From contig DASYLL010000458.1 of assembly GCA_036009605.1 (NCBI GenBank), positions 8,829 through 72,828 of the forward strand: a stretch of 64,000 nucleotides of DNA. Direction: 5' to 3'. This stretch comes from Thermoanaerobaculia bacterium (lineage in GTDB: Bacteria; Acidobacteriota; Thermoanaerobaculia; Gp7-AA8). Below the pieces are notes generated by a model. The model was not told the origin of the DNA. It did no database searches and worked only from the letters and a program-made list of their open reading frames with translations. Positions 41,523 to 46,706 of the stretch are shown in pieces (positions within the stretch are counted from its first letter, which is position 1; every line of letters begins with the position of its first letter). A program made the position numbers and the translations under genes.

Positions 41523-42071
41523 ATGAGAGAAGAAGTCACATTCAGCCGCAGCGCCGAAGCGATCATGATCCCGAGCGGTGAGAAGGTCCTCGTGCCCGTC
41601 GGCGCGCAGGCCACCATCACGCAGTCCCTCGGCGGCACCTACACCGTCATCACCGACCGCGGCCTCATGGTCCGCGTTTCCGGCAAAGAAGTCGAAGCGA
41701 TCGGCAAGTCTGCGACCGACATCGCGGACATCGCCCTTGCCGACATCACTCCCGAGAAGCTCGAGGAGATGGTGTGGGACGCGCTCAAGACCTGCTACGA
41801 CCCGGAGATCCCGGTCAACATCGTCGACCTCGGCCTCGTGTACCTCTGCGAGCTGCAGGACGCCGAAGGCGGCGGCAAGAGCGTGCACATCAAGATGACA
41901 CTCACCGCTCCCGGCTGCGGCATGGGACCGGTGCTCGCGGGTGACGTGCGCTCGAAACTCGTTTCGCTGCCTTCGGTCAAGGATGCCGAAGTGGAAGTCG
42001 TGTTCGATCCGGTGTGGGATCGCAGCATGATGTCCGAGGCGGCGCGGTTGCAGTTGGGCATGATGTGGTGA
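41523..42071 (+). CDS. SufT-like DUF59 (MIP18 family) Fe-S assembly protein with an N-terminal ~80 aa extension
   Basis: C-terminal DUF59 core VWDALKTCYDPEIPVNIVDLGLVY...TAPGCGMG. The N-terminal extension is of unknown function. Confidence 0.65.
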   Translation: MREEVTFSRSAEAIMIPSGEKVLVPVGAQATITQSLGGTYTVITDRGLMVRVSGKEVEAIGKSATDIADIALADITPEKLEEMVWDALKTCYDPEIPVNIVDLGLVYLCELQDAEGGGKSVHIKMTLTAPGCGMGPVLAGDVRSKLVSLPSVKDAEVEVVFDPVWDRSMMSEAARLQLGMMW

Positions 42072-42092: not shown

Positions 42093-42668
42093 TTGGCCTA
42101 TTGCGCACACTGCGGTAGTCACGTAGCCCAGGTCTCGTTCGTGCCGTGCGCGTCGTGCGGCAATCCGACGAACGGCGCGCCTCCGCGTCCGCCTGCGAAG
42201 AGCGTAAACGTCGCGGCGATCGTGATCGGTGTCGTTGCCGCGGCTCTCGTAGTCGTTGCGATCATCGGAATCCTCGCGGCGATCGCGATCCCGAATTTCG
42301 TCACCGTGATGGAGCGCTCGAAACAGAAGCGCACGATGGCCGACATGCGCCTCGTCGGTCTCGCGCTCGAGAAGTACGGCGAGCACCACCTGCAGGAAGA
42401 GTATCCGCCCGGTCCGACCGTCGCTTCGCTGCGTCCGTTTCTGGAGCCTTCGTACATGACGACCCTGCCGAAGTTCGATGGCTGGTCGAACGACTACATG
42501 TACATGCCACTACCGAATCGCGGGTACGTGATCGTGAGCGGAGGCAAGGACCTGACGTTCGACCATCAGCCCGACGAGTACACGCCCGGAATTATCCCAA
42601 ACTTCGACTGCGACATCGTCTATTCGAACGGTACGTTCGTGCAGTATCCCGGCATTCAGGGACATTGA
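42093..42668 (+). CDS. Chimeric zinc-ribbon :: TM :: pseudopilin (GspG/type IV pilin-like) domain protein
   Basis: N-terminal zinc ribbon CAHCG...CASCG, one TM segment running into a pilin-like helix AIIGILAAIAIPNFVTVMERSKQKRTMADMRLVGLALEKY, and the GspG-like C-terminal FDGWSNDYMYMP...VSGGKD. It lacks the canonical G/FTLIE prepilin cleavage motif. Confidence 0.6.
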   Translation: MAYCAHCGSHVAQVSFVPCASCGNPTNGAPPRPPAKSVNVAAIVIGVVAAALVVVAIIGILAAIAIPNFVTVMERSKQKRTMADMRLVGLALEKYGEHHLQEEYPPGPTVASLRPFLEPSYMTTLPKFDGWSNDYMYMPLPNRGYVIVSGGKDLTFDHQPDEYTPGIIPNFDCDIVYSNGTFVQYPGIQGH

Positions 42669-42671
42669 TCG

Positions 42672-42995
42672 GTGTACTGCACGAACTGCGGCACCGAGCT
42701 TTCCTCCGATGCGATCTCCTGCGCGAGCTGCGGTCAGGCCGTCCCGCATTTCCCACCGCCGCCGAACATCCCGAACTTTCTGGTTCACTCGATCATCGCG
42801 ACGCTCTGTTGCTGCCTTCCGTTCGGAATCGTGGCGGTGATCTTTTCCGCGCAGGTAAACTCGAAGCTCGCCGCGCATGACATCAGCGGCGCGGAAGCGT
42901 CGTCGCGCCGCGCACGGATCTGGGTGATCGTGGCATTCGTCGCCGGAATCCTTGCCTACGCGGGGGCCACGGCACTGACTTTGTGGAGGACTTGA
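42672..42995 (+). CDS. Zinc-ribbon :: CD225/dispanin-like small membrane protein
   Basis: CTNCG...CASCG zinc ribbon, proline linker, then CD225 signature IPNFLVHSIIATLCCCLPFGIVAVIFSAQVNSKLAAHDISGAEASSRRA. Confidence 0.7.
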   Translation: MYCTNCGTELSSDAISCASCGQAVPHFPPPPNIPNFLVHSIIATLCCCLPFGIVAVIFSAQVNSKLAAHDISGAEASSRRARIWVIVAFVAGILAYAGATALTLWRT

Positions 42996-43423
42996 ATTTG
43001 TTTTGTCCGAATTGCAGGACTTCGAATCTCGACAACGCGAGCATCTGCATCAACTGCGGAAAGGCGCTGACGTCGAACACGCCGCACAGCTACACACCAC
43101 CGCCCCCTCCTCCCCGCGCGAACGCGGGCTACGCACCACCACAGCCGTCCAGTGGCGAGTCGATCCCGAACTATCTCGTGCATTCGATCATCGTCACTCT
43201 CTGCTGTTGCATGCCGCTCGGCATCGTGGGGATCGTGTTCGCTGCGCAGGTCAACTCGAAGCTCGCACTCGGCGATTACATGGGTGCGCGCGAAGCATCC
43301 GCGAAAGCGAAGCTCTTCACGATGATCGGCTTCGGCATCGGTCTCGTGGGTGTCGTCATCCTGTTTCTTATGGCGGGAGCCAGCATCATGGAAGCCGTCC
43401 GTGTCGCGATGGAAAATCGCTAG
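42983..43423 (+). CDS. Zinc-ribbon :: CD225/dispanin-like small membrane protein (paralog)
   Basis: CPNCR...CINCG, PPPPPP linker, CD225 signature IPNYLVHSIIVTLCCCMPLGIVGIVFAAQVNSKLALGDYMGAREASAKA. It overlaps the previous gene by 13 bp. Confidence 0.7.
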   Translation: MEDLNLFCPNCRTSNLDNASICINCGKALTSNTPHSYTPPPPPPRANAGYAPPQPSSGESIPNYLVHSIIVTLCCCMPLGIVGIVFAAQVNSKLALGDYMGAREASAKAKLFTMIGFGIGLVGVVILFLMAGASIMEAVRVAMENR

Positions 43424-43757
43424 CGTCATCGTCCTCGGAATCATCGGCGGGTGGGTGCTCTACACCTTCCCGCCGGTCACGACCGCGTTCTATCCGCAGT
43501 GCACGTTCCGGCAGCTCACGGGATTCGATTGTCCCGGCTGCGGCTCCACCCGCGCATTGCACGCGCTTCTGCATGGACGCTTTGCGGAAGCGTTCCGCTT
43601 CAATCCGCTGCTGTTCGCGTTGATGATCGTCGCCGGAATCTCGGTGCCGAGCATGCTTCGCGGTGAGCGTCCGCGCTTTCTCTACACGCGCTGGTTCGGA
43701 TGGGGAGCCGCGATCGTGATCGCGGGTTGGTGGATCGGCCGCAATCTCTACCGGTAG
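43407..43757 (+). CDS. DUF2752 domain membrane protein
   Basis: CPxxxxTGxxCPGCGxTRA signature (CTFRQLTGFDCPGCGSTRALHALLHG). I chose the in-frame GTG at 43407 as the start; the track ORF start at 43350 overlaps the upstream gene by 74 bp. Confidence 0.55.
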   Translation, partial: RWKIASVIVLGIIGGWVLYTFPPVTTAFYPQCTFRQLTGFDCPGCGSTRALHALLHGRFAEAFRFNPLLFALMIVAGISVPSMLRGERPRFLYTRWFGWGAAIVIAGWWIGRNLYR

Positions 43758-43828
43758 TGACGCCTGAAAAGACTACGGGCCGGATGGCAACTGCCACCCG
43801 GCCCGTTTTTCGTTCGTTGCTAACCCGC

Positions 43829-45823
43829 TTATTGCGGCGGAACCGTCAGCGCTTCGACGTTGACGTAGAACCGGAAGAGACCGGTCGTCTGGACGCCGAG
43901 GTTGAACTCGACGACCGTGCTCGCGCCGTTGGCGAGCGGCACAGTCGTCGTGATGATGCCTTCGGCGAGGCTCGAGTTGAGTCCGCCACCGGACGCCTGC
44001 GCTGCCGGCGTCTGAAGCGTCAGAGCCTGCCCGGCAACGGTGGTCGTGTCGGTCAGCGTGATCATCTGAGCCGGCGAGTTGAGCACGCGAAGGTCGGCCT
44101 GTCCCGGAGGCAGCGCAGCGCCGGTGAGCGTCGTGATGTCCGCGATGCGATAGCGCAGAGCGACGACGGGCAGCCCCGTGTTGTTGGTGAAGCGGCGGCG
44201 AATCTTGAGCGTACCGTTCGCGCCGTTGGCGACAGGAGTCAGATCGCGCACGCGATTCGGTGCAGCACTCGAAGCCTGCATCGGGTCGATGATCGCCGCC
44301 GGGAACTGCCCGTTGTGCTCAATGGGTGCGCTCGTCGTGGTGTAGGCCGTCACCGTCGGTCCGCGCTGGGGTCCCGGCGCGCCGAGGGTGGACGAGACGG
44401 TGTCGATGGTCGCGCCGGTCGTGGAGACCAGCGCGAAGTCGGCACTGTTGCTGCCGGTGTCCTGCGGACGTCCGGAAGAAGCAGCCGTGATCTTGCGCAT
44501 CCAGCTGTGCTGTCCGGCGGTGACGATGCCGGCGGCAGGCGAGAGACCGGTTCCCTCTTTGTAGTCAACGTTCGTGACCGAGCTGTAGCCGACCGAGTCG
44601 AGTCGGTTGGCAGTCAGCGCGTCAGCGGTCGAGAAGACGGCGAGACCGACGTCGTCCGGCAGGAAGCCGACCGTCGCGGAAGCCGGGTTGACCCCGACGT
44701 TTGCCATACCGCTCGCGGTGATGCCGGTACCGGTCGGGTACGTGGAGAGACTGTACGTGTTGGCAGCCGGGCTCGGAGTATTCGGCTGCGTCGAGATCAG
44801 GAAATAGCCGCGTGGCGGGATGGCCAGCGGACCTGCGGTCGAGAGGGTCTGCGGCAGGACGAGGAAGGTCGTCTCGGTCGCGCCTTGCGCACCCGCAAAA
44901 CGCCAGCCCGCGCCGGTCACCGAAGTCGGGTCGGCACCCGGGATGGCGTCGATGATGGTGACGCTCGTGTCGGTGTTGTTGTAGATCTCAATGAACTCGT
45001 CGGCGCTGCCGTCCGAGGTGGGAGGCGTGGTGCCCTCGCCGCGCGTGCGGAACTCGCTGATGAGAATATCGCCGGCTGCCGGCGCCGGCGGACGCACGTC
45101 AAACGTAAGGGTCCAGCCGCCGCTGATGCTGCCGCCATCGAGGTTGGCGTCGTCGATGATGTAGAGATCCCACGTTCCGTTCGGCGTGTCGCCGTTGAAA
45201 GCCGAGAGCGTGTAAGTGTAGGGCACGCCGGCCGCGGGCGCGGGGAACACGTCGGTGGTGCCGGAGTTCGCCGGGCGGTAGCTACCGCTGACGAACGGCA
45301 CACCGGTGTTGCCGGTGACGGTCGAGGGCACCGGGCGGGCGGCGTAGTCGTCGAGCGTCACATTGATGCCCGAGACGCCGGGCGAGCCCGCGCCGAAGTC
45401 GGACATGATGACCGACTTGCGTCCAGACGGGGAGACGAGCAGGAAGTCCACGTCTGCCGGGAAGGCATGGCTGAAACCGTTGATCGTGACGGAGACGCGC
45501 TGAATGACGCCGACCTCACCCGAGACCACGATGGGCGCAGGATAGAGCGAGGCGGCCTGACCCGACAGCGGGCACGGATTCGGGCAGTCCGTGATCGTGA
45601 TGGCGGTCGCATTCGTGAACGCGGCCGAGGAGACCATCGGAGGCTGCAGCGTTCGTTTCGGCTTGTTCCCGTTTGGAACAACCGACTGCACCAGGGGGGT
45701 GGGTGCGTCGATCACTGCCGCCGACTTCTGCGCGTACGCGAAGGGCGCGGAGAGCGTCAGCGCAGCCGCAACCGACAGGACGAACCGAGATGAGGAACGC
45801 ATACGGGGGCTATGCATGGACAA
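43829..45823 (-). CDS. Secreted surface protein with proprotein-convertase P-domain-like and lamin-tail-like (LTD) domains
   Basis: Signal peptide SRFVLSVAAALTLSAPFAYAQ, a P-domain-like block VGVIQRVSVTINGFSHAFPADVDFLLVSPSGRKSVIMSD, an LTD-like block DILISEFRTRG...EFIEIYNNTDTSVTI, and a long Thr/Gly/Ala-rich beta-rich remainder. Confidence 0.7.
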   Translation of the reverse strand: MSMHSPRMRSSSRFVLSVAAALTLSAPFAYAQKSAAVIDAPTPLVQSVVPNGNKPKRTLQPPMVSSAAFTNATAITITDCPNPCPLSGQAASLYPAPIVVSGEVGVIQRVSVTINGFSHAFPADVDFLLVSPSGRKSVIMSDFGAGSPGVSGINVTLDDYAARPVPSTVTGNTGVPFVSGSYRPANSGTTDVFPAPAAGVPYTYTLSAFNGDTPNGTWDLYIIDDANLDGGSISGGWTLTFDVRPPAPAAGDILISEFRTRGEGTTPPTSDGSADEFIEIYNNTDTSVTIIDAIPGADPTSVTGAGWRFAGAQGATETTFLVLPQTLSTAGPLAIPPRGYFLISTQPNTPSPAANTYSLSTYPTGTGITASGMANVGVNPASATVGFLPDDVGLAVFSTADALTANRLDSVGYSSVTNVDYKEGTGLSPAAGIVTAGQHSWMRKITAASSGRPQDTGSNSADFALVSTTGATIDTVSSTLGAPGPQRGPTVTAYTTTSAPIEHNGQFPAAIIDPMQASSAAPNRVRDLTPVANGANGTLKIRRRFTNNTGLPVVALRYRIADITTLTGAALPPGQADLRVLNSPAQMITLTDTTTVAGQALTLQTPAAQASGGGLNSSLAEGIITTTVPLANGASTVVEFNLGVQTTGLFRFYVNVEALTVPPQ

Positions 45824-45962: not shown

Positions 45963-46259
45963 CTAGCGGTGAGTGTTGAAAAATGTCCACTCGCCGATCG
46001 CGTGTCCCGCCGCGCGCTGCTTCGCCTGCAAAAAGCCATCGACCGCAGCGAACGCACTGATTGCGAGCGACGCCGTTCCGCATGTCGGAATCGCAACGGC
46101 GAGCGCCGCGATGATGAAGACGATGCCTTTCGTCTTCTGTCCGATCACGATCGAGCCGACACCGAACAGAAAGAGATTCAGCAGCAGGATGAGGATGGGA
46201 TCACCGCCTCCGCCGGAATTCGGCGGAGGCGGTGAAGGGGTTTGCGAATCGAGGGTCAC
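45963..46259 (-). CDS. TM2-like small membrane protein with Pro/Gly-rich N-terminus
   Basis: PSPPPPNSGGGG N-terminus followed by two TM helices (ILLLNLFLFGVGSIVIGQKTKGIVFIIAALAV), resembling the TM2 domain. Confidence 0.5.
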   Translation of the reverse strand: MTLDSQTPSPPPPNSGGGGDPILILLLNLFLFGVGSIVIGQKTKGIVFIIAALAVAIPTCGTASLAISAFAAVDGFLQAKQRAAGHAIGEWTFFNTHR

Positions 46260-46262
46260 CGA

Positions 46263-46706
46263 CTAGAAGTTGATCTTCTGGCCGAGGTCCGTCAGCACGG
46301 GCACGGTGAAGCGCTTGCCGCCGACACCCTGAACGATGCAGATGACGCGGAGCACGAGGAAACCGATCCAGATGACGCAATTGATGATGCCGATGCCGCA
46401 GCCGGCGACGTTCGGCAGCACGAAGGTGAGGACCGTGACGACGATCCAGACCAGGATCTCGCCGATGAGGATGCCGAGGCCGTTCTTCGCGTGCCACTGC
46501 ACTTCGGAGTCTTCTTTCTTCGTGAGCAGCGGAATCAGCGCGAGGATCCAGAGATACGACAGCACGACCATCAACGTGCGATCTCCGCTCGCAGGGGCGC
46601 CAAAACCGGAGCCTCCGGGCGGAGGGGGCGGTGGCGGTGTATACGATCCGCCGCCGGGAGGGGGCGGAACAGCCGGCGGTACGGTGGGCGGGGGAATCTC
46701 GCTCAT
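46263..46706 (-). CDS. DUF4870 domain membrane protein with proline-rich N-terminus
   Basis: PPPTVPPAVPPPPGGGSYTPPPPPPPGG N-terminus, then DUF4870-like core LSYLWILALIPLLTKKEDSEVQWHAKNGLGIL. Confidence 0.65.
   Translation of the reverse strand: MSEIPPPTVPPAVPPPPGGGSYTPPPPPPPGGSGFGAPASGDRTLMVVLSYLWILALIPLLTKKEDSEVQWHAKNGLGILIGEILVWIVVTVLTFVLPNVAGCGIGIINCVIWIGFLVLRVICIVQGVGGKRFTVPVLTDLGQKINF

Follow-up and report, generated by a model that had tools for sequence, protein, structure and literature searches.

Introduction

The CD225 or dispanin family (PF04505) includes IFITM1-3, PRRT2, TRARG1 and the mycobacterial 'IFITM' proteins. Its motif description comprises two hydrophobic segments, a CC pair and a basic loop (Sallman Almen 2012; PMC3282796), and bacterial dispanins have been recorded in seven phyla (PMC3282796). 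In eukaryotic CD225 proteins the homologous cysteines are S-palmitoylated (PMC3282796, PMC4488726); the CC motif is also conserved in bacterial dispanins though bacteria are not known to S-palmitoylate proteins, and this conservation has been called unexplained (PMC3282796). Mycobacterial CD225 proteins produced in human cells become palmitoylated there and mildly restrict influenza virus, their bacterial role being unknown (PMC4488726). The present work deals with a cluster of four genes, g1 to g4, which contains two dispanin genes and one gene of the family DUF2752 (PF10825). The cluster is on the plus strand of contig DASYLL010000458.1 (assembly GCA_036009605.1, Thermoanaerobaculia bacterium), at positions 42093-43757 of an analysed stretch of 64,000 nucleotides (nt), called here the window. 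The main finding is that one part of the cluster, a CD225 gene followed by a DUF2752 gene, recurs in at least six bacterial phyla. The four consecutive genes, already proposed in an initial annotation of the window, are all present as open reading frames (ORFs):

42093..42668, plus strand: g1, 191 amino acids, zinc-ribbon-capped, leaderless pilin-like protein, TTG start
42672..42995, plus strand: g2, 107 amino acids, predicted zinc ribbon, short PPPP linker and CD225/dispanin domain with a CCC motif
42998..43423, plus strand: g3, 141 amino acids, predicted zinc ribbon, long poly-Pro linker and CD225/dispanin domain paralogous to that of g2, most likely TTG start
43401..43757, plus strand: g4, 118 amino acids, DUF2752 protein with three membrane helices, GTG start

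Each product can be compared with a catalogued family. The g2 and g3 proteins share with CD225 proteins the hydrophobic segments, the CC and loop motifs and a proline-rich N-terminus. They differ from the eukaryotic members in carrying an N-terminal C4 zinc ribbon in place of the PPxY/YxxPhi trafficking region and in sharing an operon with DUF2752; for the antiviral and vesicle-fusion roles of the family, no bacterial counterpart is obvious. The g1 protein shares with GspG and the type IV pilins (TIGR01710, PF08334, PF07963) the alpha1 segment ...IGILAAIAIPN... with Pro22, and the alpha-beta head, but it is devoid of the Gly(-1)/Phe(+1) site and of Glu5, and has a zinc ribbon and a linker there instead. 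The g4 protein is a typical DUF2752 member, with about 120 amino acids, three helices and a CPGC/His motif; what is new for this family is its near-constant pairing with hairpin membrane proteins, apparently undescribed. Within the library of papers searched, none was found to mention DUF2752 or PF10825, in line with the earlier view that its combination with CD225 had not been described, and no paper linking CD225 with DUF4190, TM2 or GYF in bacteria.

Two further groups deserve comparison. TM2 (PF05154) and DUF4190 (PF13828) proteins have the same head-linker-hairpin layout as g2 and g3 and adjoin DUF2752 in Pyrinomonadaceae, Verrucomicrobiota, Streptomyces and Monoglobus, but their membrane domains differ from CD225 and they are absent from the plus-strand cluster of the window. 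The zDHHC S-acyltransferases, which act on IFITM3, offer a functional analogy to DUF2752: both are polytopic, have a Cys/His metal-binding motif and are tied, genetically or functionally, to a CD225 protein through its CC motif. However, DUF2752 shows neither sequence or fold similarity to zDHHC nor a DHHC motif, and has three helices, not four or more. The member proteins belong to catalogued families, while their broad linkage is apparently undescribed.

Pairing of CD225 and DUF2752 genes across phyla

Genome loci were retrieved with a DUF2752 alignment alone, keeping the best 80 of at least 559 matches, and all the ORFs of these 80 loci were searched with profiles built from the window's own proteins. 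A CD225 gene was found within 200 nt upstream of DUF2752, on the same strand, in 65 of the 80 loci. In six others, all from Pyrinomonadaceae and bringing the total to 71, it was 201-700 nt upstream, also on the same strand, and the one gene in between encoded a zinc-ribbon-TM2 protein. One locus had CD225 convergent to DUF2752, and in the other eight CD225 was not detected; among these eight, two had a zinc-ribbon-TM2 gene directly upstream of DUF2752, and two, from Verrucomicrobiota, had a GYF_2-DUF4190 protein encoded upstream of it.

The 80 loci span Acidobacteriota (Thermoanaerobaculia and Pyrinomonadaceae), many Bacteroidota, Verrucomicrobiota, Planctomycetota (Pirellulaceae) and Nitrospirota. 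The pair was seen separately in a sixth phylum, Actinomycetota, in a Nonomuraea record with the order DUF4190-like, CD225, DUF2752. Clustering of all the neighbouring ORFs revealed no other gene family shared beside DUF2752 across phyla. Judged by gene order, the functional unit is shown to be the CD225-DUF2752 pair, present in at least six phyla and often with overlapping or near-abutting reading frames.

Other records displayed different companions. A Streptomyces record had TM2, an overlapping DUF2752, and a second TM2; a Monoglobus (Bacillota) record had DUF2752 followed by TM2; and a DUF2752 copy on a Rhodococcus plasmid stands alone. Taken with the DUF4190 cases, this suggests that CD225, TM2 and DUF4190 proteins share DUF2752 as a common partner.

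Concerning the cytosolic heads of the DUF2752-linked CD225 proteins, they are zinc ribbons in Acidobacteriota and in loci L021, L025, L034, L063 and L077, GYF_2 domains in many Bacteroidota and in Verrucomicrobiota, and low-complexity repeats rich in G, Q, P and Y in Nonomuraea (Actinomycetota); in some Flavobacteriales-type loci, e.g. that of Aequorivita, they are nearly absent. The heads appear, from their sequences, to be interchangeable. The zinc ribbon had been put forward as a shared signalling face of the module, but it is unlikely to be essential, being swapped elsewhere for GYF_2, for low-complexity sequence or for nothing.

Two side observations concern the surroundings of the pair. 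In the Nonomuraea gerenzanensis record (L093, 1003-2818), the trio lies directly upstream of trpC/trpB-like tryptophan-biosynthesis ORFs, as judged by eye in a record that is unannotated here. In four Pyrinomonadaceae loci (L024, L035, L041, L064), a DUF5518-like polytopic membrane protein is encoded about 1.3 kb upstream of DUF2752; it has a CCC motif of its own (...ANICCCLWAIVGG...) and a C-terminal poly-Pro tail, and its gene is a conserved member of the cluster that also comprises CD225, zinc-ribbon-TM2 and DUF2752.

The dispanin paralogs g2 and g3

Both proteins matched CD225 in Pfam far above the cut-off of 27.1 bits (g2, E-value 5.5e-24, 84.5 bits; g3, E-value 9.6e-24, 83.7 bits). They are paralogs with 41% identity across the zinc ribbon and the CD225 domain, which bears out their initial identification as a dispanin pair. 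Their CD225 motifs, LCCCLPFG...AAHDISGAEASSRRA in g2 and LCCCMPLG...LGDYMGAREASAKA in g3, agree with the dispanin description: two hydrophobic segments, CC in the first one, and a basic loop with (G)D and A-x6-A. Against human IFITM3, g2 showed 31% identity over 84 amino acids, with its CC aligned on C71/C72. This is taken as homology only, and membership of the antiviral IFITM subfamily is not claimed for either protein; the endocytic sorting motif of that eukaryotic subfamily would not be expected in them.

The N-terminal heads gave scores over the cut-off of 25 bits with Zn_Ribbon_1 (PF13240), both for g2 (E-value 3.4e-6, 27.1 bits) and for g3 (E-value 8.9e-7, 29.0 bits). From this score and the two CxxC knuckles they are assigned as C4 zinc ribbons, with metal binding as a prediction. 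The two paralog types, with short or long poly-Pro linker, are both kept in L001, L003, L007-L009, L011-L013, L087 and L088, so that the duplication looks old within the Thermoanaerobaculia lineage. Nearly all the DUF2752-linked CD225 proteins retain CC(C).

The DUF2752 protein g4

The assignment of g4 to DUF2752 was also far above the Pfam cut-off (E-value 2.7e-21, 75.8 bits, cut-off 27). With matches to both families and with their genes co-located in related genomes, the proposed composition of the cluster stands. A zinc ribbon or proline-rich linker had been proposed for the N-terminus of each of the four proteins; g1, g2 and g3 have it, but g4 starts without a zinc ribbon.

Between helices 1 and 2, g4 displays the motif C34-x9-C44-P-G-C47-x6-H54-x3-H58. 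In an alignment of 121 DUF2752 sequences, C34, C44, C47, R51, P32, A64 and N68 were invariant, and H54 and H58 were at least 90% conserved. The predicted structure, with a predicted local distance difference test (pLDDT) score of 93.6, has three long helices, and between the first two of these are three short ones that bear the motif. DUF2752 is a large family, for which 23,464 cluster representatives at 50% identity were counted (E-value up to 1e-3). No solved structural relative was found, and a sequence search of the PDB returned no significant match. The pattern CPxCG is a classic metal-binding (zinc) knuckle. By analogy, a metal site is favoured for the Cys/His motif of DUF2752, a redox or catalytic site being less likely, because that knuckle pattern is accompanied by two histidines one helical turn apart. 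CD225-DUF2752 fusions, sought for their bearing on topology and interaction, were found in none of the 80 loci; where DUF2752 proteins of the 150 top-ranking representatives are long, this looks due to miscalled starts.

Conservation within Thermoanaerobaculia-like genomes

The order pilin, CD225 (one or two genes), DUF2752 was observed in the contigs with g1 homologues of 45-64% identity (L001, L003/L004, L005/L006, L087, L088 and L097). The order pilin, CD225, DUF2752 was also present in seven of the eight Thermoanaerobaculia-like genome loci found via DUF2752 (L007-L009, L011-L013, L032), the eighth (L010) having no pilin gene. It holds where DUF2752 identity falls to about 46% and where the pilins are 45-79% identical; L005, L032 and L097 have a single CD225 gene. 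The cluster of four genes is far beyond chance; its gene order repeats in every related locus examined. The gene for sufT is upstream of the module in most loci (L003-L005, L008-L013, L087, L088, L096, L097). An opposite-strand gene stands between suf and the module in L001, and in L007 sufT is 2.6 kb away.

The pilin-like gene is restricted to Thermoanaerobaculia-like genomes, and so is the adjacency to suf. The idea of one conserved module is thus upheld as to gene order in related loci, but its core is the CD225-DUF2752 pair, and the pilin is limited to one lineage. Comparison of the loci shows the dispanin duplication and the pilin gene added at the front as a Thermoanaerobaculia-type elaboration of a widespread two-gene cassette.

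The pilin-like protein g1

In g1, CxxC-x11-CxxC (residues 4-22) is followed by a Pro-rich linker, then by a membrane helix that runs on into pilin alpha1, and finally by a beta-sheet head. Its N-terminus is MAYCAHCGSHVAQVSFVPCASCGNPTNGAPPRPP, followed by a hydrophobic stretch, the pilin signature IIGILAAIAIPNF and the head of 120 residues. The profile scores were below the family cut-offs, both with GspG (TIGR01710 in NCBIfam, E-value 4.8e-10, 39.6 bits, cut-off 88.85) and with PF08334 (Pfam, E-value 0.021, 15.3 bits, cut-off 21), and the Pfam search gave no Zn_Ribbon_1 match to g1 despite its CxxC-x11-CxxC. On the other hand, the AlphaFold model (pLDDT 89.5) has N-terminal beta-hairpin knuckles, a helix at 40-98 and a beta-sheet head, and its top Foldseek matches in the PDB were type IV pilins, with probability up to 0.99 and weak E-values.

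Relatives of g1 are numerous (3529 in the database at E-value up to 1e-3), and residue conservation was counted in an alignment of 95 homologues. The four zinc-ribbon cysteines were kept in 93-94 of the 95 and the Pro22 equivalent in all of them. A prepilin leader of the type G/FTxxE was present only in P0120, the other 94 being devoid of it: position -1 is Ile, Val, Leu or Ala, not Gly, and position +1 is mostly Gly, not Phe or Met. In the column equivalent to Glu5 there was no Glu, and 83 of the 95 had Ala or Gly. Secretin, ATPase and platform genes were not found within about 6-8 kb of g1, either in the window or in syntenic loci, where its neighbours are suf genes, small membrane proteins, ABC_tran_2, Ddl and MlaD; no further pilin-like ORF was detected in the 64-kb window. 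On sequence and model, g1 has a pilin fold that fails the defining tests of a processed, polymerised pilin, because its scores are under the cut-offs, its cleavage site and Glu5 are lost, and secretion and pilus genes are not nearby. The zinc-ribbon-pseudopilin chimera of the initial annotation is therefore retained as to the Cys4 head and the pilin fold, but not as to family cut-offs, leader or Glu5. The protein reads as a bitopic, membrane-anchored ectodomain rather than as a fibre subunit, its zinc ribbon facing the cytoplasm and its pilin head the periplasm.

The origin of the capped form is indicated by P0120, which is 58% identical to g1 and has the canonical leader KSQG/FTVVE. In its locus, L089, two zinc-ribbon CD225 genes come after this pilin gene, and then the first part of DUF2752. 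Since the canonical leader occurs in the same operon, the capped g1 form derives from an ordinary pseudopilin gene already within the operon.

The possibility that the zinc ribbon of g1 was an artefact of an over-long ORF was ruled out by its conservation in 93 of the 95 homologues and by L087, where a stop codon stands right before the Leu (TTG) of LAYCAYCG and bounds the TTG start. The shorter database entries of the family, with 150-175 amino acids, are miscalled starts. Public gene calls (P0001, P0092, P0107, P0110, P0116) are often 16-40 codons late, TTG being in many cases the true start, and thereby drop the zinc ribbon; the source names 'GspG' or 'pseudopilin PulG' mask the chimeric architecture.

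The results of a metagenome scan based on the pilin alignment were dominated by the generic GILAAIAIP pattern; only two new zinc-ribbon loci emerged, but the scan supplied a control set with canonical leaders. CD225 and DUF2752 were not found nearby in L100-L114, metagenome loci of head-domain relatives with GFTLIE leaders. Apart from this, five metagenome loci (L099, L098, L103, L126, L150) encode pilin-like proteins in which the leader is swapped for a zinc ribbon with a long Pro-rich linker, for extra membrane segments or for a DUF4190-like hairpin. Leaderless, anchored pilin-fold ectodomains thus seem to be a recurrent architecture. A separate observation is Cys173 of g1 (codon 42609-42611, motif NFDCD), located in the pilin head and kept in 90 of the 95 homologues; an unpaired, conserved periplasmic cysteine of this kind is unusual. 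It could relate to the three-cysteine motif of DUF2752, if the loop of the latter were periplasmic.

Gene boundaries and transcription

Two features flank the cluster:

41523..42071, plus strand: sufT, last gene of the suf operon (TIGR03406 FeS_long_SufT, E-value 2.7e-68; PF01883, E-value 8.3e-17)
43775..43806, no strand assigned: 14-bp hairpin (11 GC) with T-runs on both strands, from a terminator scan and reading of the sequence

The ORFs upstream of sufT match Rrf2-sufBCDSU of syntenic loci in size and order. The g1 start is 21 nt from the sufT stop, and a promoter scan of that gap found no sigma-70-like site, so the four genes probably share the suf transcript in the source genome. The reported position after the suf operon is thus correct for this window, but restricted to Thermoanaerobaculia-like genomes.

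There is a gap of 3 nt between the g1 stop and the g2 start. The g2 and g3 genes had been described as overlapping by 13 bp, but g3 most likely starts at TTG 42998, leaving a gap of 2 nt behind g2, because GGAGG occurs at 42985-42989, with a spacer of 8 nt before that TTG, and because homologues open one or two residues ahead of the first Cys. The alternative start, GTG 42983, would give 146 amino acids. Overlaps of 17-74 bp had been given as well: the overlap between the g3 and g4 frames is real and conserved, and amounts to 23 nt when g4 is started at GTG 43401. This call matches the 99%-identical JGI protein P0121 and has GGAAG 6 nt upstream. Homologues with two CD225 genes keep an overlap of 23-32 nt, or of up to 50 nt if the gene calls are taken as they stand. 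The hairpin at 43775-43806 is a likely bidirectional terminator, serving the operon and a convergent gene for a protein of 664 amino acids.

Downstream neighbourhood

The convergent gene (43829-45823, minus strand) encodes a protein of 664 amino acids with weak matches to a proprotein-convertase P-domain and a lamin-tail domain. It is probably a lineage-specific insertion, because all the syntenic loci examined lack it between DUF2752 and the conserved downstream genes. Beyond it, two small membrane proteins with proline-rich N-termini are encoded on the minus strand at 45963-46259 (PSPPPP..., no Pfam match) and 46263-46706 (PPPTVPPAVPPPPGG...PPPPPPP). Their homologues are convergent and directly follow DUF2752 in syntenic loci, where the second one is MamF_MmsF-like. 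Counting both, the neighbourhood has six head-linker-membrane proteins, not four.

Discussion

It seems on balance probable that the four products form an inner-membrane complex of hairpin proteins, with DUF2752 as its hub, that organises the membrane or envelope locally. The products would assemble in fixed ratios through coupled translation. The first helix of each dispanin, bearing CC(C), would be re-entrant in the cytoplasmic leaflet and the second would span the membrane, as in IFITM3, a topology with which the basic loop and a zinc ribbon in the cytoplasm are consistent. DUF2752 would be the constant hub that binds the hairpin proteins inside the membrane (CD225 here, TM2 or DUF4190 in other lineages), and would supply a Cys3His2 site at the membrane surface, most likely for a structural or regulatory metal, probably zinc. 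The cytosolic heads, zinc ribbons in Thermoanaerobaculia, would be exchangeable tethers, and the uncleavable pilin-fold head would be the periplasmic arm of the Thermoanaerobaculia complex. The likely role would be the local organisation and stabilisation of the cytoplasmic membrane and envelope, and not secretion, pilus formation or iron-sulfur (Fe-S) assembly. The earlier suggestion of 'membrane remodelling or envelope stress' was inferred by analogy with eukaryotic CD225 proteins.

Several points weigh against such a complex. Gene linkage is the sole source of the proposal, and the 80 loci are the best-scoring matches, biased toward relatives of the query. A CD225 gene on an Acaryochloris plasmid and a second Nonomuraea CD225 gene had no DUF2752 within 2.5 kb. 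The DUF2752 partnership is thus not obligatory for dispanins; of the three CD225 genes sampled in this reverse direction, these two had no nearby DUF2752 and one had it. The topology of DUF2752 is another difficulty. Lysine plus arginine are nearly balanced between the N-terminus with loop 2 (4.2) and loop 1 with the C-terminus (4.9), and members with long, Arg-flanked N-termini suggest that the N-terminus is inside and the Cys/His loop periplasmic. A periplasmic loop would be far from the CC motif in the cytoplasmic leaflet and in an oxidising environment, where a zinc-thiolate site is less usual. Finally, with a canonical leader in the same operon in L089, a pilus-type route may have been possible for the ancestor.

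Among other explanations, the one that survives best is that DUF2752 is an enzyme or redox partner, S-acyltransferase-like or with a thiol-disulfide CPGC, which acts on the dispanin cysteines as a modifier on its substrate. It agrees with the near-general conservation of CC(C) in the linked CD225 proteins, with the similar CC-P motifs of the DUF4190 partners and the DUF5518-like neighbour, with the invariant C...CPGC...H...H of DUF2752, and with S-palmitoylation of eukaryotic CD225 proteins at the homologous cysteines, the conservation of which in bacteria has been called unexplained (PMC3282796, PMC4488726). Nevertheless, it is unlikely: no similarity of DUF2752 to DHHC, DsbB, VKOR or any solved fold was found, its TM2 partners have no CC motif, its topology may set the two groups of cysteines on opposite membrane faces, and CPxCG is, in addition, a classic metal knuckle. 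Similarly improbable is the broader proposal that DUF2752 is the bacterial partner which explains the conservation of the dispanin di-cysteine, by modifying, metallating or redox-switching it. If it were true, the control of CD225 through cysteines, exerted by palmitoylation in animals, would have a prokaryotic precursor, and the module would be a new class of membrane-organising complexes with plug-in heads and, in Thermoanaerobaculia, a repurposed pilin ectodomain that does not form fibres.

A tie of the module to suf, with the Cys4 heads binding iron, as in rubredoxin, or Fe-S, and sensing or using the Fe-S, iron or redox status, would account for the promoterless 21-nt distance to sufT, for the presence of sufT upstream in related loci and for Cys4 knuckles in three of the four proteins. 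It is quite unlikely in view of the CD225-DUF2752 pairs beyond the Thermoanaerobaculia-like lineage, which are not beside suf genes, and of the separation of suf from the module in L001 and L007. In addition, the intergenic distances in other genomes, roughly 75-165 nt or more, leave room for separate promoters, and the Cys4 heads are replaced elsewhere by GYF_2 or nothing.

The weakest of the alternatives are a role in defence and a working pseudopilin. A system for phage defence or superinfection exclusion would be the bacterial analogue of IFITM action, based on the homology of g2 to IFITM3 and on the restriction of influenza virus by mycobacterial CD225 proteins in human cells (PMC4488726). 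This is very unlikely, as PADLOC gave no matches, PHROG gave weak and uninformative ones, DUF2752 was not found in a scan of viral contigs, and the genes are in stable core synteny with suf, Ddl, MlaD and ABC genes, not in a variable island; on the first three results, a defence or phage origin was dropped as lead idea. Most phages, moreover, do not enter by membrane fusion. That g1 might function as a pseudopilin in a machine for type II secretion or one resembling the type IV pilus, with the other three genes as accessories, is hardly credible in spite of its GspG-like alpha1 and head, of the name 'pseudopilin PulG' given to homologues and of the leader of P0120, as 94 of the 95 homologues carry a cytoplasmic zinc ribbon in place of Gly(-1), Phe(+1) and Glu5, so that prepilin-peptidase processing and fibre extraction would be blocked, and the sub-cut-off scores, the lack of secretin, ATPase and platform genes nearby and of a second pilin-like ORF in the window point the same way.

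Returning to the membrane-organising complex, bacterial dispanins are the presumed ancestors of IFITM, PRRT2 and TRARG1. A near-constant operon partner with an invariant Cys/His site makes their function in bacteria testable in cultured Bacteroidota and Actinomycetota. For DUF2752, with about 23,000 sequence clusters, the pairing gives a first context. Concerning g1, its pilin fold appears to have been put to a second use, as a fixed ectodomain that is anchored in the membrane and capped by a cytoplasmic zinc ribbon.

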